From assembly GCA_002713205.1 (NCBI GenBank), contig PAVW01000008.1, forward strand, positions 1 through 20,995: a DNA stretch of 20,995 nucleotides, in the 5' to 3' direction. This document shows, piece by piece, positions 4,476 through 20,321 of this stretch. Below the pieces are notes generated by a model. It made no database searches. It saw only the letters and a list, made by a program, of their open reading frames with translations, and had not been told where the DNA came from. Made by a program: the position numbers and the translations under genes. Source of the DNA: Nitrososphaerota archaeon. GTDB taxonomy: Archaea; Thermoproteota; Nitrososphaeria; Nitrososphaerales; UBA57. The stretch's first letter is position 1, and every line of letters begins with the position of its first letter.

Positions 4476-4514
4476 TATTTTGGTTTAAACCTTAATTTCA
4501 TATTATTAACACAA

Positions 4515-6230
4515 TTATTTTATTACTAGTTGATTTCCTAAAATTAAATATTCTAAACCACTATTGAAAAATGTGTTTAGTGCATCATTAGGAGACATTA
4601 CTATAGGTTCACCGTTGATATTAAATGATGTATTTAGAACAATTGGAAAACCAGTTAACTTCTCCATTTCTATAAGTATATTATAAAAATTCTTATTATC
4701 TTGTATGTTAACAGTATGCACTCTTGCTGAACCATCAACATGTGTAATAGATGGTAGTTTACTTCTAAATTCTGATTTTACTGGAACTACTTTTTCCATA
4801 TACTTACATTGAAATTTTTCTGGCACATCAAAAAATTTACTTGCTTTTTCCTCAATAATTGATGGAGCAAAAGGTCTGTAACTTTCTCTATATTTGATGA
4901 TTGCATTAATTTTATTTTTCATTTCTGGTATTCGTGGATCAGCTAAAATTGATCTATTTCCTAGTGCTCTTTCTCCAAACTCCATTCTTCCATCAAAACG
5001 GGCTACTATTTTTCCTTCACTAAGAAGTTTAGCTGTAGTTAATGACACATTTTCTAGTTTTTCAGATTTTATTTTACGTCTATCAAGTGCATCAGTTATC
5101 TCATTTTCTGTGTATTCCTTACCCAAATAACTGCTAGTGGACGAATAATCTCGTTTTTCTCCATGAACGCAATGAGAAACATAAAGTGCTGAGCCAATAC
5201 TATTGCCAGCGTCTGTAGGGTCAAAAGATATGTAGAGATTTTTAAATTGAGTCTTATCTAAAATCTTTCCATTCAAAACTGAATTCATAAAAAAACCTCC
5301 ACTGAGAGCAAGGTTTTCATTGTTTGTTTTTTTATAGAGAGTTTCAATCATATGTAGTGCAATTTCTTCTGAAACAGTTTGCATAGCTTTTGCAACTGAA
5401 AAATACCATTCATCAGGTTCTTCTCCTTTTATCCCCTCTCTCCCACCTAGTAAATTTACAAGTTTATCTGTGTATAACTTGGGTTTATCTAAAATGACTC
5501 CTTGATAATATGACTGATCTAATTCAAACAATCCATCTGATGTTAATTTAATAGTTTTACGAATTTTTTCTAGATGTTCTGTGCAATCTACATCAAAAGC
5601 TGATAAGGCCATTACCTTCCATTCATCATATCCATCTCTATAACCCAATAGTTGAGTGTATGTGGCATAAAACATTCCAAGTGAATGTGGTAGTTCTTTT
5701 GTTGAAAATATCTCAATCTCGTTTTCTTTACCAATTCCTAAACTCGTAGTTTGAAATTCTCCTCTCCAATCACATGTTAATATTGCAGCTTCCTTAAACG
5801 GAGACAAAAAAAATGCATTAGCTGCATGAGCTAAATGATGTCTAACGAAATAAATTGGTGGCATTTTATTTTTTTCTGACTGTTGCATCAAAACCCATTC
5901 TGGTGGTGACCTATCTACAAAATTATACAAATTATCAGCTACTGTATAAAAATAATCTTCTCTTTTTGTACGATAAGTGGAAAATAATGGGTTGTATTTT
6001 TGCCAATTTTCACCAGGGTTCCATCCCTGTGCGATATAATCACAATCTTCTAATTTTTTATCTATGAAATCCAAACAAAATTTTACAGCATTTTGAGGAA
6101 ATAATTTTGTTTTTTTATTTCTAGTAATTCGTTCTTCAGGTGTTCCACATACTATTTTTCCATCTATTGATATGGACGCAGTTGAATTTATTTCCCCATG
6201 ATTAAGACCTAGAACTATCAAAACTTTCAA
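4515..6230 (-). CDS. Carbamoyltransferase, NodU/CmcH/TobZ family
   Basis: 571 aa with a TTG start. Hallmark blocks are KVLIVLGLNHGEINSTASISIDGKIVCGTPEERITRNK, VRHHLAHAANAFFLSPF, LALSGGFFMNSVLNG, ITHVDGSARVHTV and VLNTSFNINGEPIV (Carbam_trans_N plus Carbam_trans_C architecture). Confidence 0.9.
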   Translation of the reverse strand: MKVLIVLGLNHGEINSTASISIDGKIVCGTPEERITRNKKTKLFPQNAVKFCLDFIDKKLEDCDYIAQGWNPGENWQKYNPLFSTYRTKREDYFYTVADNLYNFVDRSPPEWVLMQQSEKNKMPPIYFVRHHLAHAANAFFLSPFKEAAILTCDWRGEFQTTSLGIGKENEIEIFSTKELPHSLGMFYATYTQLLGYRDGYDEWKVMALSAFDVDCTEHLEKIRKTIKLTSDGLFELDQSYYQGVILDKPKLYTDKLVNLLGGREGIKGEEPDEWYFSVAKAMQTVSEEIALHMIETLYKKTNNENLALSGGFFMNSVLNGKILDKTQFKNLYISFDPTDAGNSIGSALYVSHCVHGEKRDYSSTSSYLGKEYTENEITDALDRRKIKSEKLENVSLTTAKLLSEGKIVARFDGRMEFGERALGNRSILADPRIPEMKNKINAIIKYRESYRPFAPSIIEEKASKFFDVPEKFQCKYMEKVVPVKSEFRSKLPSITHVDGSARVHTVNIQDNKNFYNILIEMEKLTGFPIVLNTSFNINGEPIVMSPNDALNTFFNSGLEYLILGNQLVIK

Positions 6231-6250
6231 TTGTTTGATTTTTGATTCGC

Positions 6251-6258
6251 ATATAAGA
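6251..6258 (-). promoter_or_regulatory. TATA-like box upstream of the carbamoyltransferase gene
   Basis: The minus strand reads (t)cttatat, centred about 24 nt upstream of the TTG start at 6230, within the 40-nt gap after neuC. Confidence 0.3.
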
Positions 6259-6270
6259 ATTTTTATTTCT

Positions 6271-7416
6271 TTAATAGAACATTTTATTATTAATTAATTT
6301 ATTACTAAGACAAATATTTTCTAAAACTTTTACAATCTTCTCTGATGAGTTTCCTTGACCATAAATTTTTTCCTTCTTTTTCAACATCTTCATTTTAAAT
6401 GCTTTTTTAATTGCTGAAGTTACATCGTTAGTGGTATTTGCATCAATTCGAATGATATTTTTTCCTACTTCTCTATTATGCTGTCTAATTCCAATTTGTA
6501 TTATAGCTGTGTCAAAATAACTTCCTTCAATAATACCACTACTTGAATTTCCTATTAATAATCTACAATTTTTTAACATTCCAAGATAATCTGCTCTAGG
6601 AATTGTTGGATAATATTTGATGAAACTATATTTTTTTGAATATTTCTTCATATACGAAAAAATAATTTTGTTTCCAGCATCAGAGTTTGGAGCAATTACA
6701 ATGGTTGTTTTTTGTTCTTTAACGATTGCATCTAAAATATTTTTAATGTAAGACTCAGTTTTTTGAGAACCTGATGTAACAGGATGTTGTACAACTAAAA
6801 TTTCATTATTGGTAAACTTAATACCATATTTTTTTTCTAAAGTTTGTTTATCAGAAATTTTATTATTTGCTATTTCATCAATACCTGGCGAACCTGTTAA
6901 AAAAACAGTTTTTGGGTTCTCGCCCATTCTAATAATTCGGTTCTTACTTTTCTTTGTTGCAGGGAAATGTATATTAGAAATTTTAGTTATTGCATGCCTA
7001 TTATATTCATCAATACCTGCTCCAGTTATGTCGCCTCCGTGAATATGAGCATTAGGTATGTTCATATGATAAGCAGCTATACATGATGCAAGTACCTCAT
7101 CCCTATCACCTAATACCAAATTAATATCAGGTCTTAATTTTTTAAAAACTTTGGAAAATTGTAAAATTCCTTCTCCAACTGAAGAAGCCATGTGAAAACC
7201 AGAATCACCCTTAGGAACCATACCAATTTTTGAATAAATCTTAAAACCATCTTTTTTAATTTCGTTAACAGATAATCCATGTTTCTTTGAAAGATGCATT
7301 CCGGAAACAATTAGAAACAAATCTAATTTTCTATTTTTTAAGATCTTTTTTAAAACTGGTCGAATTAGCCCATATTCAGCCCTTGTACCTGTAGTAACAG
7401 AAATTTTTCTTTTCAT
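6271..7416 (-). CDS. neuC: UDP-(di)N-acetylhexosamine 2-epimerase, NDP-hydrolysing (NeuC/LegG-like)
   Basis: 381 aa. VTTGTRAEYGLIRPV, LVLGDRDEVLA, HIHGGDITGAGIDEYNRHAITKISNIHF and LIGNSSSGIIEG match the conserved blocks of the hydrolysing NeuC subfamily as I remember them (xRAEYG, GDRxE, HIHGGE, GNSSSG). Only a 2-nt gap separates it from the upstream formyltransferase stop. Confidence 0.85.
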   Translation of the reverse strand: MKRKISVTTGTRAEYGLIRPVLKKILKNRKLDLFLIVSGMHLSKKHGLSVNEIKKDGFKIYSKIGMVPKGDSGFHMASSVGEGILQFSKVFKKLRPDINLVLGDRDEVLASCIAAYHMNIPNAHIHGGDITGAGIDEYNRHAITKISNIHFPATKKSKNRIIRMGENPKTVFLTGSPGIDEIANNKISDKQTLEKKYGIKFTNNEILVVQHPVTSGSQKTESYIKNILDAIVKEQKTTIVIAPNSDAGNKIIFSYMKKYSKKYSFIKYYPTIPRADYLGMLKNCRLLIGNSSSGIIEGSYFDTAIIQIGIRQHNREVGKNIIRIDANTTNDVTSAIKKAFKMKMLKKKEKIYGQGNSSEKIVKVLENICLSNKLINNKMFY

Positions 7417-7418
7417 TT

Positions 7419-8339
7419 TTATCCTAAAATTGAATCCACATTATCTTTTGTAAATATTTTTGATATTGGAACTTCTTTGTTATCATTAAAACTAATTCTT
7501 TTTAAAATTATTACACCTTTACCAGTACCAATTTTCACATTAAAATTATTTACATGCATAATCTTGCCAATACCCTTACTTTGTTCATTAGAGAATTCTG
7601 CACCCCAAATTATTAATTTTGACCCATTAAAAATTGTGTACGCACCAGGATATGGATGAGTAGTAGCACGAATAAGTGTATGAATTTCTTGTGAATTTCT
7701 TGACCAGTCTATAATTCCATCTTGCGGTCCCCGTTTTTCCCAATTTTCTATAAAATTAGAAACATCTTGTTTTTTTCTTGTATAATTTCCATTTTGAAGT
7801 TTTGTTAGATTATCTTGTATCATTTCTTTTCCAACAGATTCAACTTTTTTATAAACTGATGTTGCATCATCATTTGAGCTCAATTTAAAAGATCTTTGAT
7901 CAAGAATATCACCATTATCAGTTCCCTCTTCAATGAAAAAAAATGTTAACGCACTTGTTTTCAATCCCTTTAAAATTGACCATGGAATGGGTGCCCGTCC
8001 ACGATATTTTGGTAATTCGGTAGGGTGAGAACCAATCACACCTATTTTAGGTATAGAAATAATTTCAGAATTTAATAACTGTGACCAACCCATAACTAGT
8101 ATTATGTCTGGTTCTATTTTTTTAATAATTTCAATATTGTTTTGAGCGTTAATTTTATCTACTTTAATATTTTGTAAATTATACTTTGAACAAAGTTCAT
8201 CTAAAGATATAAAATCACTAATTTTTTCCTTCTTAGAATCATCATAACTGAACACAACTGAAATGTTCCAATTATTCTCTAGAATAGTTTTGAGTATTTC
8301 ATAACTAAATTTAACTCCTCCAATGAAAATAATTTTCAT
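7419..8339 (-). CDS. Formyltransferase (Fmt/ArnA-N/sugar N-formyltransferase-like)
   Basis: 306 aa. MKIIFIGG, PDIILVMGWSQLL, GVIGSHPTELPKYRGRAPIPWSI (compare Fmt INVHGSLLPRWRGAAPI, from memory) and GTDNGDIL (compare LDTGDM), plus a C-terminal Fmt-like domain. Confidence 0.85.
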   Translation of the reverse strand: MKIIFIGGVKFSYEILKTILENNWNISVVFSYDDSKKEKISDFISLDELCSKYNLQNIKVDKINAQNNIEIIKKIEPDIILVMGWSQLLNSEIISIPKIGVIGSHPTELPKYRGRAPIPWSILKGLKTSALTFFFIEEGTDNGDILDQRSFKLSSNDDATSVYKKVESVGKEMIQDNLTKLQNGNYTRKKQDVSNFIENWEKRGPQDGIIDWSRNSQEIHTLIRATTHPYPGAYTIFNGSKLIIWGAEFSNEQSKGIGKIMHVNNFNVKIGTGKGVIILKRISFNDNKEVPISKIFTKDNVDSILG

Positions 8340-8359
8340 GTATATCTAATTAAAAATCC

Positions 8360-8369
8360 TTTAATTAAA
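8360..8369. promoter_or_regulatory. Perfectly palindromic TATA-like element (TTTAATTAAA) in a 54-bp divergent spacer
   Basis: It is centred about 26 nt from the formyltransferase ATG (8339, minus) and about 29 nt from the NeuB-like ATG (8394, plus). It is its own reverse complement. Confidence 0.4.
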
Positions 8370-8393
8370 ATGTGCAACTAACAATCATACGAT

Positions 8394-9083
8394 ATGGTCT
8401 TTATTGTTGCAGAAATTGGAGTGAACTGGGACGGGGATTTTGACTTAGTGAAACAAATGATGAATGAATCAAAACTACTTGGATTAAATGCTGTGAAATT
8501 TCAAGCATTTACATTTGAGATGGTAAAAAATCATCCTGAATCTAATAGACTAATGAATTCATCAATTACCAAAGAAAATATAGAAAAAATTAATGATATT
8601 TCTCAAGAAGTTGGAATTAACTGGTTTTGTACTCCAATGTATCCAGATGCTGTTAATTTTTTAGATAGATTTGTTTCTAGATACAAAATAAGAGAATTTG
8701 ATGGTCGTGAAATAATTCAATCAAATCAAACTGATTTATTTCAAACTATTTATAAAAAACATAAGAACATATTCATAAGTTCTGAAACAGTTCCAGTTAA
8801 TTGTTCATTTTATAATGATCCACAGATCAAATGGCTTTATTGTATTCCTAAATATCCATGCGGTCTTGACGATATCGATTTTTCTCTTTTAAAACATTTT
8901 GATGGTTTTTCAAATCATTGTAATTTAATTGAGGCACCAATTCGTGCATTACATGAGGGTATTGAAATCCTTGAAATCCATGTTACTTCTGATAAAACTA
9001 AAGATTTCGTTGATAATAACGTGAGTTTTGATTATGATGAAATTAAAGACATCATGAAAGTAGCAAAAGTTATCAATTCATAA
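8394..9083 (+). CDS. NeuB-family nonulosonic acid synthase-like protein, TIM-barrel only (no SAF domain)
   Basis: 229 aa. FIVAEIGVNWDGDFDLVKQMMNESKLLGLNAVKFQAF aligns to the NeuB N-terminal block EIGxNHxG...VKxQ. WFCTP, YKIREFD, WLYCIPKYP, GFSNHCN and LEIHVTSD align to FISTP, YKIGSGE, LLHCxxxYP, GLSDHT and LERHFT of N. meningitidis NeuB (from memory), so both metal-ligand His positions are retained. The ORF ends at 9083 and only 95 nt of non-coding DNA follow. Confidence 0.7.
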   Translation: MVFIVAEIGVNWDGDFDLVKQMMNESKLLGLNAVKFQAFTFEMVKNHPESNRLMNSSITKENIEKINDISQEVGINWFCTPMYPDAVNFLDRFVSRYKIREFDGREIIQSNQTDLFQTIYKKHKNIFISSETVPVNCSFYNDPQIKWLYCIPKYPCGLDDIDFSLLKHFDGFSNHCNLIEAPIRALHEGIEILEIHVTSDKTKDFVDNNVSFDYDEIKDIMKVAKVINS

Positions 9084-9148
9084 AATTTAGATGGAAAATG
9101 ATAAAATCTTCTAGAAACACTACAGTTGATTTGTGTTAATAAACTAGA

Positions 9149-9160
9149 AATTATATATAT
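9149..9160 (+). promoter_or_regulatory. TATA-like box upstream of aminotransferase 1
   Basis: aattatatatat is preceded by a purine-rich agaaa (BRE-like) and lies 19-30 nt upstream of ATG 9179, consistent with a leaderless or very short-leader archaeal transcript. Confidence 0.45.
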
Positions 9161-9178
9161 TGAAAGAGAGATAATGAT

Positions 9179-10312
9179 ATGAAAAATTGGAAAATACCTT
9201 TATACAAAATCTATACAGATGACGAGGATGTAAATTTAATCACAAAGGTAATCAAAAGGGGCTCTTCTTGGGCATTAGGACCAGAAATTGAAGAATTTGA
9301 AAACGCAATTAAAAACTATGTTGGTGTTGATTATTGTGCAACTCTAAATTCTGGTACTTCTGCATTACATGCAACTTATTTAGCATATGGAATCAAAGAT
9401 GGTGATGAAGTTATAATACCATCATTTTCATTTATTTCCACAGCAAACTCTGTTATGTTTGTAAATGCAAAACCAATTTTTGCAGATATTGAAGAAACAA
9501 CACTTGGATTAAATCCAGAACTACTTGAAGAAAAAATTTCAAGTTCCACGAAAGCAATAGTCCCTATGGATTATGGTGGTCTTTCATGTAATATTTTTGA
9601 AATTAATAATGTTGCTAAGAATAATAATATTTTATTGATTGAAGATGGTGCAGAGGCATTAGGTTCATCTGTACATGGGAAAAAAGTTGGCAGTGTTTCT
9701 GATTCGACAATATTTAGTTTCTGTGGTAATAAAGTACTAACTACTGGTGAGGGCGGTGCAGTAGTGACAAATTCTAAAGATATCTATGAAAAAATAAAAA
9801 TGGTTCGCTCACACGGCAGAATTAGTCAAATTGATTATTTTAATGACCCAAAAGGATCACAGTATATAGAACTTGGCTATAATTGGAGGATGTCTTCTTT
9901 AACTGCAGCTTTAGGAATATCACAACTTGGAAAACTTGATAAAATTATTAAAATGAGGAAAGAAAATGCAGAATATATCTCAGCCCGACTCTCAAAATTT
10001 ACACAAATTACACCTTTAACTCCCCCTGTTGGGTATGATCATATTTATCAAATGTACACAATTAAACTGCCAGATAGAAAAATCCGTAACTCTCTACATA
10101 ATTATCTTTTAGATAAGAGAATCTTCTCAAAAATCTATTTTGAACCAATTCATTTAACTGATTTTTATCGCCAAAAATTTGGCATAAAAGATGGTGCATT
10201 ACCAATCACAGAAAAAATATCTCAATGCATACTGACAATTCCTATTTATCCGAATATGACTATGGAAGAAAAAACATATCTTGTTGAATCAATTTCTGAT
10301 TTTTTTGAATAA
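9179..10312 (+). CDS. PLP-dependent sugar aminotransferase, DegT/DnrJ/EryC1/StrS family (PseC/LegC/PglE-like)
   Basis: 377 aa. GPEIEEFENAIKNYVGVDYCATLNSGTSALHA, IIPSFSFISTANSV, DGAEALGS, FSFCGNKVLTTGEGGAVVTN (PLP lysine) and WRMSSLTAALGISQL. Confidence 0.9.
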   Translation: MKNWKIPLYKIYTDDEDVNLITKVIKRGSSWALGPEIEEFENAIKNYVGVDYCATLNSGTSALHATYLAYGIKDGDEVIIPSFSFISTANSVMFVNAKPIFADIEETTLGLNPELLEEKISSSTKAIVPMDYGGLSCNIFEINNVAKNNNILLIEDGAEALGSSVHGKKVGSVSDSTIFSFCGNKVLTTGEGGAVVTNSKDIYEKIKMVRSHGRISQIDYFNDPKGSQYIELGYNWRMSSLTAALGISQLGKLDKIIKMRKENAEYISARLSKFTQITPLTPPVGYDHIYQMYTIKLPDRKIRNSLHNYLLDKRIFSKIYFEPIHLTDFYRQKFGIKDGALPITEKISQCILTIPIYPNMTMEEKTYLVESISDFFE

Positions 10313-10336
10313 AACTATAACACTGAAAATAATCTT

Positions 10337-11215
10337 CTACGATAAATAGTGTTTAATTACCCACATATCTGGAAATTCTTCTGCATTATCTCTTTCAACA
10401 TCTGAAATTAAGATTTCATCCATTTTTTCACCCTGTCTTAAGCCTACCACCTTATGTTTTTTAGATATTTTATTAGCTAGTTCTTTTATTTTGTATGACT
10501 TCATTTTTGGCACAAATATCTCTCCTTGATTTATGAGCGGTATACATTTTATAATAAAATCAACAGCTTCACCAATATGGAAAAAATATCTTTTCATGGA
10601 TAAATTGGTAATTGATAGAGGCAAATTATCTTTGAACTCCTTATCCCAAACTTCAAATACATTTCCTCTAGTTTCGATAACATTGCCAAATCGGACGCTG
10701 GCAAATTTAGTATGTTCAACATGCATTCCAGCCCAACTAGTTAATCTCTCACCCAACTGTTTTGTTGTTCCATAAAGTGTGGATGCGTCTGCTGCTTTAT
10801 CGGTACTTATGTTTAGAAATTTAATTGGTTTATTACGAATTATAGCCTTTATAATATTTACAATTCCATTTATGTTAACATCAATTGTTTCAATCGGATT
10901 AAATTCTGAAATCTCAATATTTTTTACAGCAGCGGCATGTATGATTATATCTACATTATCACATGCCATGTTGATTCTGTCTTTATCAGTAATACTTCCA
11001 AGCAGAAGTCTTAATCTTGGATCATTTACGTCACGCTTTAATTTAAATAGCCCATATTCATCAATATCTAAAACTCTTATAGCTTTAATTGGATATTCTA
11101 AAAGATGTTTTGCCAGGGCAGTTCCAATACTTCCAGCTCCTCCAGTCAACAAGATTGTTTTATTTTTTAATTCTTTTTTAATATCTGATAGATTACTAGT
11201 GTTTTTTTTACGCAT
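10337..11215 (-). CDS. NDP-GlcNAc 4,6-dehydratase, short soluble Polysacc_synt_2 type (PseB/FlaA1/PglF/CapD-like)
   Basis: 292 aa. KTILLTGGAGSIGTAL, DPRLRLLLGSITD, HAAAVKNIEISEFNPIETIDVNING, STDKAADASTLYGTTK, RFGNVIETRGNV, GEIFVPKMKSYKIKELA and GLRQGEKMDE align block by block with H. pylori FlaA1/PseB as I recall it. Retaining versus inverting (Leg versus Pse) stereochemistry cannot be judged by eye. Confidence 0.85.
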   Translation of the reverse strand: MRKKNTSNLSDIKKELKNKTILLTGGAGSIGTALAKHLLEYPIKAIRVLDIDEYGLFKLKRDVNDPRLRLLLGSITDKDRINMACDNVDIIIHAAAVKNIEISEFNPIETIDVNINGIVNIIKAIIRNKPIKFLNISTDKAADASTLYGTTKQLGERLTSWAGMHVEHTKFASVRFGNVIETRGNVFEVWDKEFKDNLPLSITNLSMKRYFFHIGEAVDFIIKCIPLINQGEIFVPKMKSYKIKELANKISKKHKVVGLRQGEKMDEILISDVERDNAEEFPDMWVIKHYLS

Positions 11216-11352
11216 TTATTGCATCTCCAAATAAATCATTTTTCTAACATTTGCTCTAAAATCTTGCATATTAATAATTTCGTCTTTTTTTATTTTATTA
11301 TGTTTTAATTTTAGTCATATAATGAATGAATGCAACATAACATAATTCAATA

Positions 11353-11362
11353 CTATTTATTA
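11353..11362 (+). promoter_or_regulatory. TATA-like box upstream of the oxidoreductase operon
   Basis: ctatttatta is centred about 28 nt upstream of ATG 11386, in a 170-bp divergent spacer. Confidence 0.3.
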
Positions 11363-11385
11363 CTAATAATTTGTGAGGTTTATCC

Positions 11386-12327
11386 ATGAAAAAATATAAT
11401 GTGATAGTGATTGGTTTAGGTTTAATCGGAATGAGGTATGGTATTGATCCAAAAAGAAAACAACCTGCAAGTCATATTGCTGCTATATTAGAAAATAAAA
11501 ATTTACAATTAATAGGAGTATGTGATACAGAGAAAAATGCAAGAGATCTTTTTACTGAAAAATATAAAAAAATACATGTTTTTGATAATTTTTCAGAACT
11601 TGCAAGTAAAATTAATCAGAAACAAATTGATTGTGATATTATAGTTATTTCTACTCCTGACTCAACTCATGTAGAGATTTTGAATTCTTTAGTTGAAAAT
11701 CTCAACCATATAGAAAAGTCTGTGATTATATTTTGCGAAAAACCATTAACACCAGATTTGTATACTGCCAAACAAGTAAAATCTCTCATAAAAAATCCTC
11801 ATATCAAAATTGTTGTAAACCATACTAGGAGATGGAGTGAGATTTGGAATGAAGCTCACATATTATCTAAAGACATTGGGCATATTAAAAAGGCAGCATT
11901 TTATTTTTCAACAACTGCTGAAAATAAAGAAATTAATCAAATTAGAGACGGTATTCATATTGCTGATTTAATGAATTGGTTTAATATTTTAGAAAAAACA
12001 ACGATAAACAGATTAGATATACCATATTTTATTTATGATTTCTATCTTTGGGGTTCAAAAGGAAAGATAGAAATTTTATCAAATGGCCAAATTCTAAATT
12101 TCTTTAAATCAAAGGAATCTTCTAAATATGAAGGATATCAAGATTTGGAATTAATTTGCACCAAAAAAGTTAACGAATCATTTTTTTCTAAAATCTATAA
12201 AGAATTTGTAGAATTTTTGGATGGAAGTATTTCTTCACTCTCTACCAATATTGACGATGCTATATCTGCATTATCTACTTTTGAGAAATATGTATTTGAT
12301 ATGGAGAAATCTAAAACTAGGGGATGA
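11386..12327 (+). CDS. Gfo/Idh/MocA family NAD(P)-dependent sugar oxidoreductase
   Basis: 313 aa. Rossmann motif VIVIGLGLIG, VISTPDSTHVEI and the FCEKPL (EKP) motif. An SD-like gtgaggt sits at 11373-11379, 6 nt before the ATG. Confidence 0.8.
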   Translation: MKKYNVIVIGLGLIGMRYGIDPKRKQPASHIAAILENKNLQLIGVCDTEKNARDLFTEKYKKIHVFDNFSELASKINQKQIDCDIIVISTPDSTHVEILNSLVENLNHIEKSVIIFCEKPLTPDLYTAKQVKSLIKNPHIKIVVNHTRRWSEIWNEAHILSKDIGHIKKAAFYFSTTAENKEINQIRDGIHIADLMNWFNILEKTTINRLDIPYFIYDFYLWGSKGKIEILSNGQILNFFKSKESSKYEGYQDLELICTKKVNESFFSKIYKEFVEFLDGSISSLSTNIDDAISALSTFEKYVFDMEKSKTRG

Positions 12328-12333
12328 AACATT

Positions 12334-13503
12334 TTGACTAAACGATTTAACGACAAGGAAATTGAAGCAGTAAAAAATGTCATAGAAAACGGCAAATATC
12401 TTTCAGGATTTACAACAAAGTTTAGAGGAGGTGAAGAGGTACAGAAATTTGAAAAGGAATTTGCTAAATACATTGGTGTGAAGTATGCACTATGTGTAAA
12501 CTCTGGGACATCTGCATTATTTATTGCATTCAAGACTGCTATTCAATATGGTAAAAAAACTAAAAATTCTAAATTAATAAAACCAAATATCCATCTTCCT
12601 GCATATACTTTTACTGCTGATCCAAGTGCTGCGCTTCAAGTGGGTGGTAAAATAGTTTTTGAAGATATTGATAAGAAATCATACTGTATGTTGAAGCCTA
12701 AAATACACACTCCGATATGTGTTCCAACACATTTGTTAGGAAATGCAATACAGCCATCAAATTTTGGAAAAACTGAATTTTTAATAGAAGACTGTTGTCA
12801 ATCTTTGGGAACTCGGGTTGGTCAAAGAATGGTGGGTAGTTTTGGAGCAATGAGCATATTTAGTTTTCAAGAAACAAAACATATTACAACACTTGGAGAA
12901 GGTGGAATGATATGTTCTGATAATGAAGAATTAATTGAGATTGCGGCTGCAATTAGAAATCATGGTGAATATTACCAACAAAAAAATTATTTTGGCGGTA
13001 ATTTTCGTATGACAGAAGCGCAAGCCGCATTTGGAAGAATACAACTAAAAAAAATCAATTCTATTCTGAAAATGTTTAGAACTAATGCTAAACAAATAAT
13101 AAAAAAACTTCCAAACGGTATTATTCCACCATACATAAACCATAAAGTAGAACACTCATTTTTAGTAATTGGTTGTTTATATGACAAAAAAATAATTGGT
13201 GTTGATAGAGAAATTTTCTTAAAAAAACTTACAGCAAACAGAAAGCATATTCTAGAAATGGATGAAAAATCAGATATAAAAGGTATTAATATGAAATCTG
13301 GGAAATTAATTTCTTCAGGTTATTCAATTCCTCTTTATAACGTTCCACTCTTCAAGAAATTTAAGCCTAAGAATGGTTGTAAAAATGTAGAAGACATAAT
13401 AAAAAAATCATTTTGGATGGACATTCACAAGTTTAGAACTAGTGAAGAAATATCTGAAGAAATTGATATTTTAAATGATACTATAACAAAATTTCAACAA
13501 TGA
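12334..13503 (+). CDS. Second DegT/DnrJ/EryC1-family sugar aminotransferase
   Basis: 389 aa with a TTG start 6 nt after the oxidoreductase stop. GEEVQKFEKEFAKYIGVKYALCVNSGTSALFIA, EDCCQSLG, FSFQETKHITTLGEGGMICS and FRMTEAQAAFGRIQL. Its stop overlaps the next start (ATGA at 13500-13503). Confidence 0.85.
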   Translation: MTKRFNDKEIEAVKNVIENGKYLSGFTTKFRGGEEVQKFEKEFAKYIGVKYALCVNSGTSALFIAFKTAIQYGKKTKNSKLIKPNIHLPAYTFTADPSAALQVGGKIVFEDIDKKSYCMLKPKIHTPICVPTHLLGNAIQPSNFGKTEFLIEDCCQSLGTRVGQRMVGSFGAMSIFSFQETKHITTLGEGGMICSDNEELIEIAAAIRNHGEYYQQKNYFGGNFRMTEAQAAFGRIQLKKINSILKMFRTNAKQIIKKLPNGIIPPYINHKVEHSFLVIGCLYDKKIIGVDREIFLKKLTANRKHILEMDEKSDIKGINMKSGKLISSGYSIPLYNVPLFKKFKPKNGCKNVEDIIKKSFWMDIHKFRTSEEISEEIDILNDTITKFQQ

Positions 13504-14210
13504 AAATTATATCTATAATAACTGCACGCTCTGGCTCTAAGGGGGTTCCCCACAAAAACATCCGAAATCTTGGTGGAATACCACTGTTAGGTTGGGGTGT
13601 GAAAGCAGCCAGTAAATCGAAGATGATTAACAAAATTATACTATCAACTGATTCAGAAGAATATTTCAAAATTGCAAATTCATTTAATGACGAAATAATT
13701 TTTCATAAACGAACTCCCGAGTTAGCAGAAGATGTTCCTTCCGAGTTGGTATTGTTAGATGTGATTAATAAATTCGATGAACTTTTTGATGATGATGCTA
13801 TTATTGTTTTAATACAACCAACTACACCGTTTGTATCACATATTGATATTGACACGTGTATTGAAAAATTAATAAAAAATCCACATGTGAATAGTTGTAT
13901 TACTGTAAAAGAAGTAACAGAACATCCTGAATGGGTAATAAATAAAAAAGAAAATTTTGATGATATTGGAGAATGTCTTGATCTATCTGGAAGTTTTTCC
14001 GTGAGGCAAAATCTGAAAAAAAGATGGATTGCTAATGGTGGTGCATATGCAATAAGAAAATCATTTTTTGAAAAAAATAAAAAAATAATAGATGAAAAAA
14101 ATACTCTTGTTCATGAAATGCCAAAAATAAAAAGTTTAGACATAGATGAAGAATATGATTTCATGTTATGTGAATTATTAGCAAATTCTGGATTAGTGAA
14201 TCCAGAATAA
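13500..14210 (+). CDS. neuA: CMP-nonulosonic acid synthetase (acylneuraminate cytidylyltransferase; NeuA/LegF/PseF-like)
   Basis: 236 aa. IISIITARSGSKGVPHKNIRNLGGIPLLGW carries the ARxGSKxxxxKN signature of CMP-sugar cytidylyltransferases; VLIQPTTPF is also present. It is translationally coupled to the preceding aminotransferase. Confidence 0.9.
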   Translation: MKIISIITARSGSKGVPHKNIRNLGGIPLLGWGVKAASKSKMINKIILSTDSEEYFKIANSFNDEIIFHKRTPELAEDVPSELVLLDVINKFDELFDDDAIIVLIQPTTPFVSHIDIDTCIEKLIKNPHVNSCITVKEVTEHPEWVINKKENFDDIGECLDLSGSFSVRQNLKKRWIANGGAYAIRKSFFEKNKKIIDEKNTLVHEMPKIKSLDIDEEYDFMLCELLANSGLVNPE

Positions 14211-14231
14211 GTTTTTAAAATTATTGATTAG

Positions 14232-14243
14232 CTTATATTAAAG
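14232..14243 (+). promoter_or_regulatory. TATA-like box upstream of the small ORF / DUF115 / B12-rSAM unit
   Basis: cttatattaaag lies 28-39 nt upstream of ATG 14271. This suggests the DUF115 and B12-rSAM genes can be transcribed independently of neuA. Confidence 0.4.
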
Positions 14244-14270
14244 ACAAATTAAGTTATTGTTAGTAGAAAA

Positions 14271-14435
14271 ATGAAAAAAAAACTATTATGTGGTAATTAT
14301 GAACCAAAAGTTAATCCTGAAGTAGAAATCTCTGAACCAAAAAACGAACCTGAATTTGAAACAGAAGCACTCAAACATCTTGGTGGAAGCATAGCATTTG
14401 TGAGGGGTGATAAGTTCTATGAAGAAAATAACTGA
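14271..14435 (+). CDS. Hypothetical small acidic protein (54 aa), not in the supplied ORF track
   Basis: ATG at 14271 to TGA at 14433-14435 reads MKKKLLCGNYEPKVNPEVEISEPKNEPEFETEALKHLGGSIAFVRGDKFYEENN. A TATA-like box (cttatattaaag, 14232-14243) lies about 30 nt upstream, the same geometry as other genes here. The ORF overlaps the start of the DUF115 gene in another frame. There is no homology evidence, so it could be a chance ORF in the 196-nt spacer. Confidence 0.3.
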   Translation: MKKKLLCGNYEPKVNPEVEISEPKNEPEFETEALKHLGGSIAFVRGDKFYEENN

Positions 14436-15321
14436 TAATGAACTTCTTGATATTATAACCAAAAGTACATTAGAAATTCATGGTCCTATGTGGCTTGAGA
14501 ATATACAATATAATGAAAAAAAATATGGGTTCAACGATACATTAAATGGAATTAAAATAAAATCGTCTAAAACATTAGTAATTGCTGCAGGTCCTACTTT
14601 CAAGAAAGTTTTTGGAAAAAACTTTCAAGAGATTATGAAAAAAAGAAATGAAATAACCATTGTGGCATGTGATGGAGCATTATCAATGCTTACCGAGATT
14701 AACTGTATTCCGGACTATGTTGTTTCCGTAGATGGTGATCCAATAATTGCAAATTTTTATAAAAAATCTAAAAAAATTCTTCGAGGTGTAACTGTGATTC
14801 TAGCTACATCAATTAATCCAAATGTAGTCAAGGAATGTATTGATGCTGGTGCTAAAATAAAATGGGTTCAACCATTCTTCAGAAATAATTCTGAAGAAGA
14901 ATTCTTTAGAGATGGAATTACATCTATAAAGATGGGAGGAAATGTTGGAACTGCATCATACATTCTAACAGCATTTGCACTTAAAGGGAATCCAATTGGG
15001 TTAATGGGAATAGAATTTGCGTGGAGTGATGATACACCATATAGCGATACACAATATTATAACCAGCTTATGAAATCATTTGATAAAAACCAAGAAAAAG
15101 TTGAAGAACAATTTATTCATGTTAATAATCCAAGAAATGGTAATGTATACATTGCAGATCCAGTGTATTATGCGTATTTCTTAATGCTTAAAGAGATTTG
15201 GAGTGAACTTCCTTCAGAAATTAAGGATAATACCTATAATCTAACTAGTGAGGGGATACTAAATATTGCCGATTTAAAATATATACATATTAAAAAGTTC
15301 TTAGAATTAGAACAGAAATGA
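14419..15321 (+). CDS. MptE-like / DUF115 (Maf, MAF_flag10) domain protein; candidate CMP-NulO-dependent protein glycosyltransferase
   Basis: The ORF is open from 14404. The track uses GTG 14407; I prefer ATG 14419, which is preceded by an SD-like gaggggtga (14402-14410). The core KTLVIAAGPTFKK ... ITIVACDGALSMLTEINCIPDYVVSVDGDP fits the G-P-S/T ... D-x-A ... P-D-x-x-x-x-D signature of the DUF115 domain. Its stop overlaps the next gene's start. Confidence 0.75.
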   Translation: MKKITDNELLDIITKSTLEIHGPMWLENIQYNEKKYGFNDTLNGIKIKSSKTLVIAAGPTFKKVFGKNFQEIMKKRNEITIVACDGALSMLTEINCIPDYVVSVDGDPIIANFYKKSKKILRGVTVILATSINPNVVKECIDAGAKIKWVQPFFRNNSEEEFFRDGITSIKMGGNVGTASYILTAFALKGNPIGLMGIEFAWSDDTPYSDTQYYNQLMKSFDKNQEKVEEQFIHVNNPRNGNVYIADPVYYAYFLMLKEIWSELPSEIKDNTYNLTSEGILNIADLKYIHIKKFLELEQK

Positions 15322-16916
15322 AAATATTATTTATTAATCCAGTAGTAAGATATTTCGATGAACCTCGTCATGTTCCATTAGGCATGCTTCAATTAATGGG
15401 CATACTAGAAAGGGATCATCCTAAAGTAAAATTTCAGTTGTATGATGCCAATGCATTTAGAATTGATAATATGGAAACTGGTGAAACAAAAGGATTAGAT
15501 CAAGTTCTGTCAGCAGAAGAGTTTGATGTTATTGCAATTGGAGGATTAATTACAGCGTATAGATATATTCGACAAGCCGTTAAAAGATGTAAACAATTAC
15601 AACCACATGCAAAGATAATTGCAGGTGGAGGTTTCTATACTGCAACACCATATGATATGATGGATCTTCTACAAGAAATTGATTATGGAGTAGTAGGAGA
15701 AGCGTATTTGACTCTGCCTGAACTTTTAACCGTAATAGATAAAAATGAAGAGCCTTCAAACGTAAAAGGAATTTTTTATCGTAAAGATGGAATAATAAAA
15801 TTTTCTGAACCAAGAGAATTAATTCCAGATATGGATTGGCTACCTTTTCCAGCATACAAATATGCACCACTTGAAATCTATTTCAAAAATTCTGGTATAT
15901 TAATGAGCGAAGTATCAATGACATCGCAAAAGAGACTAGATGCATGTATGAGTTTATCTTGTCCATTTCTTTGTAGGTTTTGTTGGGATTTAGGAATTAC
16001 ATCCAATACAAAAATGAAAGTTGTAGATGGAAAACCTGAACCAGTGACAGGTAGACCTGGAAGAGACAGTATAATTAGGCAGCATTCACCTGAATATTTT
16101 GCAAAATATATCAAACATCTACGGGATGATTATTTAGAAATTCCTAGTGATGATAATGGCAATGGTATTGGAAGTCCTGTTGATTTTATAGCATTAGTTG
16201 ATGAAAATGTTGTAGCTCATGATGCTCAAACTGGATTTACATGGTTAAAAGGCATAAAGGAAGAATTATGGAAACAGGATCTTGTTCCAAATTGTGTAAA
16301 AAAAGGAGTTCCTCATGATTCAAAAATTTGTGATGGGCCACATTTTGGAGGTGCCAGTCATGCTGGTCTAGTGAATAAAGAGATGTTAAAAACTTTGAAA
16401 GATATTGGTTTTACTTATTTGGATTATGGTCTTGAGCATTGGGATCGTAAAATACTAAAAAATCTTGGTAAAGGTACTACACTAGAAGCTAATGCAAGAT
16501 GTATTCAATGGACATTAGAATCAGGAATTAGTCCTATTCCAAATCAAATAATTATGTTTCCAGAAGAAGATTGGGATACACTAAATACAATGATAGATGC
16601 GTGGGAAAAATACAATATAGTTAGTACTCCGTTTATTTGTACACCATATCCAGGTTCAGAGTGGTACATAACATACAAAGACCTCATTCTACAACAATAC
16701 AATAATAATTTAGAATCATTCATACTGGATTTAGAAGATGCAACGAAGGTTACAGCATTACTGACAAAAGATTTTTCTCCAGCAGAGGCTGTAGGTATAC
16801 AAAATATTATGTCTCAAGCTGCAAGAACAGGAGATTTTAAGAATGCAAGAAGGTTATTGGCAATTTCGAAGAGAATGCATGAATCTCGTTTAAGTTTGGC
16901 CATGAGTACAAAGTAG
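15318..16916 (+). CDS. B12-binding-domain radical SAM protein (class B architecture; putative methylase)
   Basis: 532 aa. The N-terminal Rossmann-like cobalamin-binding-type domain has KILFINP, FDVIAIGGLITAYRYI and AKIIAGGGF. It is followed by SLSCPFLCRFCW (CxxxCxxC). ATGA overlap with the DUF115 gene at 15318-15321. Confidence 0.85.
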   Translation: MKILFINPVVRYFDEPRHVPLGMLQLMGILERDHPKVKFQLYDANAFRIDNMETGETKGLDQVLSAEEFDVIAIGGLITAYRYIRQAVKRCKQLQPHAKIIAGGGFYTATPYDMMDLLQEIDYGVVGEAYLTLPELLTVIDKNEEPSNVKGIFYRKDGIIKFSEPRELIPDMDWLPFPAYKYAPLEIYFKNSGILMSEVSMTSQKRLDACMSLSCPFLCRFCWDLGITSNTKMKVVDGKPEPVTGRPGRDSIIRQHSPEYFAKYIKHLRDDYLEIPSDDNGNGIGSPVDFIALVDENVVAHDAQTGFTWLKGIKEELWKQDLVPNCVKKGVPHDSKICDGPHFGGASHAGLVNKEMLKTLKDIGFTYLDYGLEHWDRKILKNLGKGTTLEANARCIQWTLESGISPIPNQIIMFPEEDWDTLNTMIDAWEKYNIVSTPFICTPYPGSEWYITYKDLILQQYNNNLESFILDLEDATKVTALLTKDFSPAEAVGIQNIMSQAARTGDFKNARRLLAISKRMHESRLSLAMSTK

Positions 16917-16955
16917 AAATTATTTGTAATTATATTATTTTAATAATTCAAAAAA

Positions 16956-17999
16956 TTAATCTGAAATATATGAAACATTTTCAATACAGCTCTTACAAGC
17001 AGGATTTTTAGTATAGTCCCCATTTTTATGCATCTCACGCAATTTTTTCATTTTTTCAGAGTTCCAAATCTCACCTAATGATTCTTTTTTCCAGTTACCC
17101 ATAACTAAATCAACTGCATAAAAACTACAACACCCTAAGACATCACCATTTCCTCTTAGTGTCATTCTCTTAAATGGTTCAGGACAATGAAATTTTTTTG
17201 GTGGCTGTCGAGTATTTTCTAAAGCTATCTCATCTTTTTTTGAAGGATCCTTAAATTTTCCATCACCAAATGGGTCTAATAACCTTTGAGCACCTAAGCT
17301 ATCAACCCTATCTTTCCAATAGTCTACAAATTGATCATATTCATGATCATTTATCTTCGATCTAACAAAACTTAAGCGTAATTTTGGTAATTTTGATTTC
17401 ATATTTTTTCTTATTTCCATAAAATCATGAATGTTCTTTACTGTAGCTTTAAGATTTCCACCTACACGAATCTTTTCATATGTTTCTTCAGTTACCGCAT
17501 CTAATGAAATATTAATTTTTGTGAGTCCAGATTCTATTAGTTTTTTCGACATTTCTTTAGTCAGTAATGTACCATTAGTAGTTATTATAACATCTAAAAT
17601 TCCAACGTCAGATGCATATTTAATAAATTGATCAATATCTTGGCGAATTAACGGTTCATTAATGTAACAAAGTCTAATAGATTTTGTACCTTGTGATACA
17701 GCTTCTTTTATTAATTTTTTATAATCTTCAAAAGTAAACCAATCTTCCTTTTTTTCAACTGTAGTTTCCGTAGACCAGGTACACATTGGACATCTCAAAT
17801 TACACGAATAATTCAACTCAAGCTCTAAATGGGAAGGATATTTTGTCTCAATTTCCAATCGTGAACACTTTTCCCAATTCTCTCTATACGAATTCCAGCG
17901 TTCAGCACCTTTAGAGTCAATAAAATCTTTCTCATATTCATCAGTAAAATAAAGATTTTCTGAAAATCCACCATCAAAACTTTTTTTTCCTTTAATCAA
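16956..17999 (-). CDS. Radical SAM protein with partial SPASM / twitch-type C-terminal auxiliary-cluster domain
   Basis: 347 aa with a TTG start (a TAA lies immediately upstream in frame). YSCNLRCPMCTW gives CxxxCxxC. The C-terminus HCPEPFKRMTLRGNGDVLGCC ... MGNWKKESLGEIWNS ... ACKSCIENVSYISD gives C-X12-G-X4-C ... C-X2-C, and then the protein ends. Confidence 0.85.
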   Translation of the reverse strand: MIKGKKSFDGGFSENLYFTDEYEKDFIDSKGAERWNSYRENWEKCSRLEIETKYPSHLELELNYSCNLRCPMCTWSTETTVEKKEDWFTFEDYKKLIKEAVSQGTKSIRLCYINEPLIRQDIDQFIKYASDVGILDVIITTNGTLLTKEMSKKLIESGLTKINISLDAVTEETYEKIRVGGNLKATVKNIHDFMEIRKNMKSKLPKLRLSFVRSKINDHEYDQFVDYWKDRVDSLGAQRLLDPFGDGKFKDPSKKDEIALENTRQPPKKFHCPEPFKRMTLRGNGDVLGCCSFYAVDLVMGNWKKESLGEIWNSEKMKKLREMHKNGDYTKNPACKSCIENVSYISD

Positions 18000-18094
18000 T
18001 TAGAAAAATATTAAATTTTAGATATTTAATGGTTGAGTCATAATAAAGAATATAATTTTAGAATACTACTGAATTAGTGAACTACTCTGAGGTG

Positions 18095-19003
18095 TTATTT
18101 TTTTAATGCCTTCATATGAAGATAACCTTCATTGAATAAAATTTTAGCCAAATCTGATTCATAATTGTGATATAGCGGGCTCAAAAATTGTCTAATGTTG
18201 TTAAATTTTGGATATCTTGTTAATCTTTTAATATCTACAAATCCGTTATTTTCTAGCCAGTTTACAACATCATCTATTGGCGTTTCGTCATAAATCGGTG
18301 TTTGTATTCGATCTTTTATTGTTAAAATTAAATCATTATCAATCAATGATGTAATTGTATCTAAAGGAATTTTATTTATTATCGGTTCATCATGTTTTTC
18401 TAATTCAGTATATATCAAGTTAAGCGATTCCATAATTTTTTGTTCGGTTAAATTATCTATCAATGATTTAAAATTCAAATTTTTTGTATATTCATTTCTA
18501 AGCACTTTAGTTATTTGTGAAAAAAGTCCACCAGCTCCAAATATTGAAAAATATAATGTGCCCCCATGTTTTGTCACTCTCGATAATTCTGAAAGCCCAC
18601 CAAACAAATCTGTTGTACTATGCAAAACACCGTTACAATACACAAAATCAAAGAAATTATCTTCATATGGAATATCTAAAACACTTCCACTTTTTAATTC
18701 ATATTTTCCTTCAAATTTTTTCAAAAATTTTTGTGCTGTTTCTATAAATGATGGTTCAACATCTAAATCAAATGCATGAACTTTTTTTGCTCCCAAATTT
18801 ATTAACGCTCTGGTTCCGTTTACATTTGAACCACATCCTGCATCTAAACAAATTTTATCATTAAAGAATGATTCATCTACCTGAAAGAATTCATGAGAAA
18901 TCATTGAGGTTATTCTATCATATATGGATTCATCATTTCCTTGTTCACAATGAATTTCGTGATAAACTTCTCTTGTTCGTTTTTCGATTTCTTCAGAATC
19001 CAT
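18095..19003 (-). CDS. Class I SAM-dependent methyltransferase
   Basis: 302 aa. Motif I is ICLDAGCGSNVNGTRAL; post-I is KVHAFDLD; also FDFVYCNGVLHS and KHGGTLYFS. It is co-directional with, and 95 nt upstream of, the SPASM radical SAM gene. Confidence 0.85.
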   Translation of the reverse strand: MDSEEIEKRTREVYHEIHCEQGNDESIYDRITSMISHEFFQVDESFFNDKICLDAGCGSNVNGTRALINLGAKKVHAFDLDVEPSFIETAQKFLKKFEGKYELKSGSVLDIPYEDNFFDFVYCNGVLHSTTDLFGGLSELSRVTKHGGTLYFSIFGAGGLFSQITKVLRNEYTKNLNFKSLIDNLTEQKIMESLNLIYTELEKHDEPIINKIPLDTITSLIDNDLILTIKDRIQTPIYDETPIDDVVNWLENNGFVDIKRLTRYPKFNNIRQFLSPLYHNYESDLAKILFNEGYLHMKALKK

Positions 19004-19044
19004 TGTTAATTAAATCCAGACCAAGCCACCAACTTAAAAAAGTA

Positions 19045-19153
19045 TCAAAAATGGTAAAACTTGTTAAAATATTATTTCCCTAAAACTTCTAATTTCAGGT
19101 AACGTATAATTGGTGATTAAAATTTTAACCAAACCACACCATCGTTAAATCCT
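19045..19153 (-). pseudogene. Stump (leader plus ~29 codons, in-frame TAA at codon 23) of a diverged homologue of the gene at 2511
   Basis: The reverse complement of 19045-19153 aligns without gaps to 2490-2598 (hand count: 94/109 identical). It translates from TTG (19132-19130) as VKILITNYTLPEIRSFREIIF*QVLPFL, versus FKILVSHYALPEIRSFRTLIFEQVLPFL for the intact gene. Confidence 0.8.
19045..19153 (-). repeat. Right arm of the ~109-bp inverted repeat (decayed copy)
   Basis: See the left arm. There are 15 substitutions and no indels over 109 nt in my hand alignment. Similarity ends abruptly at both borders. Confidence 0.85.
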
Positions 19154-19193
19154 GTAGATTTTTTACAAAAAACATTACCGTATAATCAAATGT

Positions 19194-19203
19194 ATTATAT
19201 TTA
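19194..19203 (+). promoter_or_regulatory. TATA-like box upstream of gmd
   Basis: attatattta lies 27-36 nt upstream of ATG 19230, with no purine-rich SD between them. Confidence 0.45.
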
Positions 19204-19229
19204 CCGTTCTTAGTTAAAATCATAATATC

Positions 19230-20321
19230 ATGAAGCGTGCTCTAATAACAGGTATTACTGGCCAAGATGGGGCTTATCTAGCAGATTTATTATTAAAAAA
19301 GGGTTACAAAGTCTTTGGTACATTTAGACGAACATCAACGCCTAATTTTTGGAGATTGCAGAATCTAGGAATATATTCTCAAATAAAACTAATCCCTGCA
19401 GATTTACTTGACATGGGTTCTATGATAGAAGCAATCAAGGTTTCTGATGCTGATGAAATATATAATTTAGCGGCTTCTAGTTTTGTCGGTACATCATTTG
19501 AACAATCAGTTGGAAATGCTGAAATCACAGGTCTTGCTGTTACAAAACTTTTAGAAACAATAAGATTTCTTAATGAAGATATAAAATTTTACCAAGCATC
19601 AAGTAGTGAAATGTATGGTGATAACAAATTTATATTTCAAAATGAGAAAACACCATTTATGCCATCTAGCCCATATGGAATTGCAAAACTTTATGCTCAT
19701 TGGATTACTGATATTTACAAAAAATCGTACAACATGTTCGCTGTTAATGGAATATTATTTAACCATGAATCGCCTCTTCGTGGACTAGAATTTGTTTCAA
19801 GAAAAATTACTAATGGTGTAGCAGAAATTTTTCTGGATCGAAAAAAGGAATTGGTTTTAGGGAATCTACAGGCAAAGAGAGATTGGGGATATGCACCTGA
19901 GTATATGGAAGCCGTACATTCAATGCTTCAACAAGATAAGCCAGATACTTTTGTAATCAGTACTGGTGAAACACATAAAGTTCAAGATTTTGTCAAGTTA
20001 GCATTTGACCTGGTTGGATTAAACTGGAAAAAATATGTTAAAACTGATAAACGCTTCTTTCGTCCGTTAGAAGTTAATTATTTACGCGGAAATAACAAGA
20101 AAGCAAAAAGTAAACTGGGTTGGAAACCAAAAATAACTTTTGAAAAACTTGTAAAGATTATGCTAGATGAAGACATAAAAAGATGGAAAATGTTTTTGGA
20201 CGGCAAAACATTTCCTTGGGATGCACCTCTTTATCCTAGTGAATCAAAATTTATTACCAGACTTAGTGATGAAAATAAAAAAATGAAATTAACCCATTCA
20301 CACTCAAAAAAGAAAAAATAG
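19230..20321 (+). CDS. gmd: GDP-mannose 4,6-dehydratase
   Basis: 363 aa. KRALITGITGQDGAYLADLLLKKGYKVFGTFRRTSTPNFWRLQNL, YQASSSEMYG, SPYGIAKLYAHW (YxxxK), NGILFNHESPLRG and RDWGYAPEYMEA are near-canonical Gmd blocks. It has a Lys-rich C-terminal tail. Confidence 0.92.
   Translation: MKRALITGITGQDGAYLADLLLKKGYKVFGTFRRTSTPNFWRLQNLGIYSQIKLIPADLLDMGSMIEAIKVSDADEIYNLAASSFVGTSFEQSVGNAEITGLAVTKLLETIRFLNEDIKFYQASSSEMYGDNKFIFQNEKTPFMPSSPYGIAKLYAHWITDIYKKSYNMFAVNGILFNHESPLRGLEFVSRKITNGVAEIFLDRKKELVLGNLQAKRDWGYAPEYMEAVHSMLQQDKPDTFVISTGETHKVQDFVKLAFDLVGLNWKKYVKTDKRFFRPLEVNYLRGNNKKAKSKLGWKPKITFEKLVKIMLDEDIKRWKMFLDGKTFPWDAPLYPSESKFITRLSDENKKMKLTHSHSKKKK

Follow-up and report, generated by a model that had tools for sequence, protein, structure and literature searches.

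The 226-nt spacer between a methyltransferase gene and gmd, at one end of an archaeal cell-surface glycosylation island, was found to contain an inverted and truncated second copy of the start of a gene located at the other end of the same island. This 109-nt element, which we refer to as the stump, is homologous to the start (leader and codons 1–29) of the intact gene beginning at position 2511 (the 2511 gene), has the sequence characteristics of a diverged allele rather than those of an old, decaying duplicate, and lies at the edge of a segment that differs in every related strain. We consider that the stump is probably an inert remnant, namely the first 109 nt of a second 2511-family gene left at the right-hand island junction. 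The stretch of DNA analysed (20,995 nt; hereafter the window) is a marine metagenome contig of 30% G+C that derives from a member of the Nitrosopumilaceae, and the features discussed below are listed in Table 1.

Table 1. Features of the window relevant to the stump, with coordinates numbered from the first base of the window.
Feature	Coordinates	Strand	Description
unk498	917..2413	-	Polytopic membrane protein, divergent partner of the 2511 gene
Promoter-like (BRE/TATA-like) block	2464..2478	+	CGAAAATAATTTAAC; upstream of 2511-family alleles, missing from the stump
Resident copy of repeat	2490..2598	+	Leader and codons 1–29 of the 2511 gene, in ancestral context
Intact 2511 gene	2511..3791	+	426 aa, GT-B-fold enzyme of nonulosonic-acid clusters; probable sugar transferase
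Strain-variable part of glycosylation island	3806..19238		Nonulosonic-acid pathway genes, two radical-SAM genes, methyltransferase
Methyltransferase gene	18095..19003	-	Class I SAM; first intact gene downstream of the stump
Spacer, stump to methyltransferase	19004..19044	-	41 nt; last 11 nt (19004-19014) shared with methyltransferase homologues
Stump	19045..19153	-	21-nt leader and codons 1-29 of a 2511-family gene; TTG equivalent at 19132
Spacer, stump to gmd	19154..19229		76 nt, strain-specific, AT-rich; presumed gmd promoter
gmd	19230..20321	+	GDP-mannose 4,6-dehydratase; first gene of the island's conserved right flank

Results

The stump and the start of the 2511 gene form an inverted repeat

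Direct comparison of positions 2490–2598 on the plus strand with 19153–19045 on the minus strand gave an ungapped match in which 94 of 109 positions were identical (86.2%), with perfect runs of 14 nt (at the 5' end), 24 nt and 21 nt. The same pair was recovered at E = 5e-31 by self-blastn of the whole window (word size 7), where the runner-up match had an E-value of ~7e-4, and an inverted-repeat search identified it as the single long inverted repeat in the window (109 nt, 86% complementary, arms 16,446 nt apart). Both borders of the match were sharp, since identity beyond it fell on either side to ~25–35%, i.e. background. The first matching base lay 21 nt 5' of the TTG at 2511 and the last was the first base of codon 30, while the right copy translated as LVKILITNYTLPEIRSFREIIF*QVLPFL, the stop being a TAA at codon 23. 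These results agreed with the initial annotation, which had reported the pairing with its 24- and 21-nt blocks, its extent from 21 nt 5' of the TTG to about codon 29, the TAA at codon 23, and an end of similarity 41 nt from the methyltransferase ATG (19003) within a 226-nt spacer (19004–19229).

The stump was base-for-base identical across 10 independent metagenome contigs (an example of a stump-specific 30-mer is one spanning GGGAAATAATATTTTAAC), and it was also present, with one substitution, in a strain 97.5% identical to the window (L042). It is thus not an artefact of assembly, and a chimera in particular was ruled out by the identical stump in the 10 independent assemblies.

The parent gene encodes a GT-B-like protein of sugar clusters

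The 2511 protein gave a partial match to Pfam PF02350 (38 bits, cut-off 30.6) and, in the Pfam scan, no match to PF04464 (CDP-glycerol glycerophosphotransferase), a family to which several of its homologues have precomputed matches. Its scores against TIGR04396 ('surface carbohydrate biosynthesis protein'; 40.9 bits) and the BFO_1060 model (58 bits) fell below the respective cut-offs of 125 and 200. The AF2 model of the protein (pLDDT 85.4, pTM 0.84) comprised two Rossmann-like domains, and the best Foldseek matches in the PDB were UDP-GlcNAc 2-epimerases and GT-B transferases (E-values as low as 2e-13, TM 0.5–0.65); a sequence search of the PDB with the 2511-family profile returned no match. 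As modelled, the 2511 protein is therefore predicted to be an enzyme of the GT-B fold. In every genome examined the 2511-family gene was located within a sugar cluster, and because of this constant placement the protein is probably the transferase for the sugar, which makes it a candidate archaeal nonulosonic-acid transferase. Two distant members of the family had precomputed matches to a polysialyltransferase family (PF07388).

The family comprised 110 homologues (P0001–P0110), the few of which with source names came from Nitrosopumilaceae or Nitrosarchaeum, and all 10 genome loci from the family-profile search belonged to Nitrosopumilaceae or other ammonia-oxidising archaea; judged by these few names and genome hits, the family appears to be confined to Nitrosopumilaceae. 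Close relatives of the 2511 gene were divergently paired with unk498 wherever the contig reached upstream. The unk498 protein had a dozen or more hydrophobic segments and no Pfam or NCBIfam match, and may be a flippase- or polymerase-like membrane protein.

The stump resembles the 5' end of another allele

In tblastn, residues 1–29 alone of the 2511 protein were placed at the stump (19132–19046, E = 8e-8), and a sensitive tblastn detected no further pieces of a second 2511-type copy in the window. These 29 of 426 codons cover strand 2–8 and most of helix 17–32 of the AF2 model, i.e. the first strand and helix of the N-terminal Rossmann domain. The stump is unable to encode a protein, and it makes none because only 29 codons are present, codon 23 is a stop, and the promoter-like block of the family, described below, is missing.

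Over the 109 nt, the stump was 77–86% identical to seven alleles, which were 75–99% identical among themselves, and in tblastn its translation matched the non-resident homologues P0005, P0006 and P0009 at 76%, against 72% for the resident protein. At 11 of the 15 positions where the stump differs from the resident copy, its base also occurs in a working allele from another strain, and at three of these 11 positions it was the resident copy, not the stump, that carried the private state; the stump therefore reads as a genuine diverged allele. The remaining four differences were found in the stump alone (a change at a third codon position, two base changes that produce T19E, and E23stop), compared with 0–5 private states in functional alleles over the same positions. 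They included two events at conserved positions, one at T19, which is at least 90% conserved in the family, and one converting E23 to the stop codon, and two such protein-damaging events fit a short period of relaxed selection. From these comparisons the stump would be the 5' end of another allele of a 2511-family gene and not an old decaying duplicate. The initial annotation had described it as a decayed and diverged homologue; the divergence was upheld by the 11 states shared with working alleles, but 'decayed' is an overstatement for a sequence with four private changes, against 0–5 in functional alleles.

The repeat was also mosaic. The terminal 14 and 21 nt of the stump were identical to the resident copy, and every other allele differed at these ends, by 2–5 nt and 3–4 nt, respectively, while the centre of the stump (−7 to +30) was nearer to L014 and L017 (6–7 mismatches in 38 positions) than to the resident copy (11 of 38). 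The chance of all 15 differences avoiding the ends was ~0.002–0.004, a post hoc statistic that rests on those 15 differences. The mosaic ends hint at an origin of the stump from the resident gene itself.

The stump lies at the edge of a strain-variable segment

The two arms of the repeat bracket a 16.4-kb nonulosonic-acid sugar cluster that encodes a PIG-L deacetylase, a carbamoyltransferase, a UDP-GlcNAc 2-epimerase, a formyltransferase, a short NeuB-like synthase, two DegT aminotransferases, a PseB-like dehydratase, a GFO/IDH oxidoreductase, a CMP-sugar synthetase, an MptE/PseD-like protein, a B12 radical-SAM protein, a SPASM radical-SAM protein and a class I methyltransferase. The NeuB-like synthase (8394–9083; 229 aa) matched positions 1–254 of a 329-position model and had no C-terminal part; relatives had the same short form, so it is not a local truncation.

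On the left, close relatives of the 2511 gene (72–92% nucleotide identity; L014–L017 and L028–L030) had their flank in common with the window. The window was colinear across both 2490 and 2598 with L028 (92%) and L014 (85%), and there is accordingly no breakpoint at the left arm. The DNA 3' of the 2511-gene stop (~3805) was strain-specific, consisting of PIG-L in L014/L015, an MptE-like gene in L016/L028, DegT1-PseB in L030, a carbamoyltransferase in the opposite orientation in L017, and another methyltransferase in L029. On the right, relatives of gmd (80–92% nucleotide identity; L031–L033, L043 and L044) aligned with the window from 19239 onward only, and in all five the position upstream of gmd was occupied by unrelated genes, either one reading in the same direction or a divergent GT2 or GT1. 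Similarity to related strains therefore ended at ~3805 on the left and resumed at 19239 on the right, which places the stump at the right edge of the variable segment. Island gene content and order were different in every one of these relatives (L014–L017, L028–L030, L031–L033, L043 and L044).

Several rearrangements were seen within the variable islands. In L014/L015 (3167–18528) the order of blocks was circularly permuted relative to the window, with the PseB-to-SPASM block (window 10424–18033, without MptE and B12-rSAM) lying to the left of unk498 and SPASM directly after unk498. The SPASM gene was inverted in L030, and ~950 bp of extra sequence (L016 1395–2348) separated the GT1 gene from unk498 in L016, where the gap in the window is 18 nt. 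L017 carried a 107-nt internal fragment of the methyltransferase gene (L017 3131–3235; 92.5% identical to window 18233–18339) in the spacer after its carbamoyltransferase gene.

No second copy of the 2511-gene start was present within 10 kb of the homologue in L014/L015, nor in L016, L017 or L028–L030, and the stump was absent upstream of gmd in L031–L033, L043 and L044. Among the related contigs that reached the relevant positions, the stump was seen in L042 only. The initial annotation had proposed that a homologue of the 2511 gene once stood divergently from gmd. This was not borne out by the relatives, as the five gmd loci had other genes and no stump at this position, and close homologues were paired with unk498 and never with gmd; at close range, no full-length 2511 homologue adjoining gmd was found among the sampled relatives. 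Only in a distant Nitrosarchaeum (L018) was a 2511 homologue divergent from a gmd operon, which there consisted of a 324-aa gene (GT), gmd and a methyltransferase gene, and one gene lay in between.

Short patches of divergence in the strain that shares the stump

L042 was the sole diverged carrier of the stump, and it was locally near-identical to the window, with two differences in the 872 nt around the stump, both of them in the 226-nt spacer. Over window positions 18437–20995 it showed 65 differences, which occurred in patches: 33, a 3-nt indel among them, fell in 18446–18563 (118 nt, in the methyltransferase gene), a further 15 fell in 19436–19577 (142 nt, within gmd), and there were none in 18564–19021 or 19104–19435. 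To judge from their distribution, these patches bear the signature of homologous recombination over short tracts (~120–140 nt), acting between diverged alleles within a natural population of ammonia-oxidising archaea.

The promoter-like block of the family is missing from the stump

A block with the sequence CGAAAAT(A/C)ATTTAAC was found at −47 to −33 of the 2511-family start codon and was complete in the six alleles whose contigs reach this far, including L030, whose protein is 76% identical; in L029, the seventh allele, the contig begins within the block. The copy upstream of the 2511 gene was the sole exact match to the block in the window, and nothing similar to it was present upstream of the stump. 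In archaeal promoters, the BRE/TATA element is located about 25 nt upstream of the transcription start site, and given this geometry the block is likely the promoter, with a transcript starting ~10 nt 5' of the TTG. The repeat starts at −21, so the block falls outside the stump, and its absence means that both borders of the stump are breakpoints.

The closest homologue of the methyltransferase was P0232 (75%). The nearest methyltransferase homologues with readable DNA, those in L034–L041 (79.5% nucleotide identity), had only the 11 nt upstream of the ATG in common with the window, and the stump was absent upstream of the gene in these loci. No match to Rfam was obtained at the gathering threshold for the whole window. 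The predicted fold of the minus-strand stump RNA had z = −2.06, with 8 of 200 shuffled sequences folding as well, and that of the plus strand was unremarkable (z = −0.55). Nothing in these comparisons supported a conserved regulatory element at the stump. The earlier proposal of a leader retained by the stump, with a possible promoter function for the methyltransferase operon, was not supported, in view of the position of the block outside the repeat and the occurrence of L034–L041 methyltransferase genes without a stump.

Discussion

Origin of the stump

We favour a history in which the stump derives from a full-length second copy. The right sub-cluster (methyltransferase and SPASM radical-SAM, followed by the convergent B12-rSAM/MptE/CMP-transferase/aminotransferase/oxidoreductase block) would once have been headed by its own 2511-type gene next to the gmd operon, and would then have been joined with the unk498/2511 module in one island. 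Everything from codon 30 onward would subsequently have been deleted from the redundant copy or replaced, leaving a fragment that gives no protein and has no demonstrated regulatory role. In the distant loci L023 and L026, a full-length homologue was convergent with the same B12-rSAM/MptE/CTP/DegT2/GFO block, and its topology relative to this block was that of the stump. The divergent arrangement in L018 and the allele-like sequence of the stump also speak for this history. Selection may account for the 5' border just before the start codon, if the gene had to keep working once placed. With breakpoints at both −21 and +88, this history requires at least two events.

The main alternative, which we regard as unlikely though worth serious consideration, is that the element was never full-length, and that ~109 nt of sequence, either copied from the resident gene or taken up as a short DNA fragment, entered the methyltransferase-gmd spacer in inverted orientation through illegitimate or template-switch repair, its centre being later overwritten by short-tract conversion from other alleles. 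A single insertion would account for both breakpoint borders, and conversion confined within the homology predicts exactly the observed pattern of resident-identical ends, at which all other alleles differ, around a centre nearer to L014 and L017. Removal of the insert would leave a spacer of 117 nt, an ordinary length for divergent genes (104–220 nt in L032, L043 and L044), and pieces of comparable size are known from the 107-nt methyltransferase fragment in the spacer of L017 and the 118–142-nt recombination patches of L042. However, a random piece of a 1.3-kb gene would begin less than 30 nt 5' of the start codon in only ~2% of cases by length, the stump protein is nearer to non-resident alleles than to the resident one, no known mechanism for such insertions is documented in these archaea, and the statistic on the identical ends is post hoc and based on 15 differences. 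We prefer the full-length copy to the copied fragment; the element would be a recombination scar under either. The description of the spacer as a recombination scar in the initial annotation was thus retained as regards a 5' fragment at a junction in a variable island, but the simple replacement of a gene body that it envisaged was not, given that both borders are breakpoints and the ends are resident-like.

Functional readings were also weighed. It is very unlikely that the stump has been kept as an RNA or leader, either as a 5' UTR or 22-codon upstream ORF of the methyltransferase/SPASM operon, or as a plus-strand antisense RNA that would pair with the 5' end of the 2511 mRNA and couple both ends of the island. 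The exact conservation of the start-codon region and of the 14-nt end of the leader, the reading frame that the stump ORF shares with the methyltransferase ATG 129 nt away, the minus-strand fold and the small number of private substitutions are compatible with such a role, but the conserved promoter-like block is missing, three stop codons lie between the start of the stump and the methyltransferase ATG, the 79.5%-identical methyltransferase homologues do without a stump, neither Rfam nor the plus-strand fold lends support, and an element found in a single lineage has no comparative support. We consider it extremely improbable that the arms are sites for reversible inversion of the 16.4-kb sugar cluster, in the manner of a phase-variation switch, which would put the intact leader and start in front of the methyltransferase operon and fuse the stop-bearing stump to the 2511 body, turning the transferase off. 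The arms do form an inward-facing inverted pair around the entire nonulosonic-acid cluster, and gene orientation does vary among strains, as for SPASM in L030. Against this, Pfam revealed no recombinase or integrase in 19 of the 22 window ORFs of at least 80 aa, nor (precomputed Pfam) any recombinase in the called genes up to 9 kb beyond gmd, the families present among the scanned window genes and in these 9 kb being sugar-pathway, radical-SAM, methyltransferase and glycosyltransferase families only; 11 right-junction and three left-junction contigs from at least 10 samples all had one orientation, although assemblies show the majority form only; the arms are 86% identical and share no perfect block longer than 24 nt; and no second copy was seen in related strains, so that any switch would be private to one lineage. 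A working inverted pair that flips the cluster independently of a recombinase is likewise highly improbable, as is a weaker version in which pieces of ~100–140 nt (the stump, the L017 fragment and the L042 patches) reflect a short-tract recombination mode characteristic of these archaea that would also seed ectopic gene fragments. If the former were true, each flip would swap which end of the cluster the intact 2511 leader drives, the stump with its stop codon would silence the transferase, and the pair would act as a phase-variation device for the surface glycan of a marine ammonia oxidiser.

Other structural origins were rejected. Inversion of the whole island at staggered breaks was ruled out by the left copy, which has no breakpoint at 2490 or 2598, and tandem duplication followed by deletion, as suggested by the permutation in L014, would give a direct and not an inverted repeat. 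The arms are not the terminal inverted repeats of a mobile element, since Pfam revealed no transposase among the scanned genes, and since strains without the right arm have the left arm embedded in continuous, conserved sequence; nor is there a target-site duplication, as the outer flanks (...ATAAGGA and GTAGATT...) do not form a direct repeat. A viral origin was rejected, the repeat core having no match in viral contigs.

Significance and comparison with known systems

The stump is a small, dated footprint of reshuffling in an island of cell-surface glycosylation genes carried by an abundant marine archaeon, and it indicates that a second allele of the cluster's GT-B enzyme was once present in, or acquired by, this lineage. 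Together with the patches in L042 and the fragment in L017, it shows that diverged alleles recombine here over short tracts. Its use is as context for the population genomics of ammonia-oxidising archaea and for island annotation; no new mechanism is revealed.

Invertible switches flanked by inverted repeats include the capsule promoter inversions of Bacteroides and the shufflons. As in these systems, inverted repeats bracket surface-glycan genes in the window and one arm overlaps the start of a gene. In contrast to them, there is no recombinase gene among those scanned, the arms are long and 86% identical rather than short conserved sites, the intervening segment measures 16.4 kb, and a single orientation was found in 14 contigs.

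The island itself resembles the replacement flexible islands for glycosylation of marine microbes. In marine ammonia-oxidising archaea the main flexible islands are reported to be glycosylation islands (bioRxiv 10.1101/2024.04.23.590705), and homologous recombination at the borders has been proposed as the mechanism of exchange under the replacement-island concept (bioRxiv 10.1101/2024.04.23.590705; PMC4033161). In such islands, including those of Nitrosopelagicus brevis CN25 and Nitrosopumilus catalinensis SPOT01, glycosyltransferase and sugar-gene content varies between conserved borders, as it does here. In so far as these papers describe the exchange, however, they present whole-cassette replacement and SNP peaks at the borders and not gene stumps within the island, and the species behind the window does not appear to be among their reference genomes.

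The closest parallel is provided by bacterial O-antigen and capsule loci. A review of E. coli O-antigen clusters listed nine 'gene remnant' anomalies in 178 serogroups, which were taken as footprints of recent recombination (PMC7685785). Like these remnants, the stump is a partial, non-coding copy of a cluster gene at a junction in a strain-variable polysaccharide locus. It differs from them in being archaeal, in belonging to a nonulosonic-acid cluster with no IS element nearby, in its inverted orientation relative to an intact copy 16.4 kb away, and in its truncation on both sides. The stump is thus an archaeal example, in a nonulosonic-acid cluster, of a kind of gene remnant that is already known.
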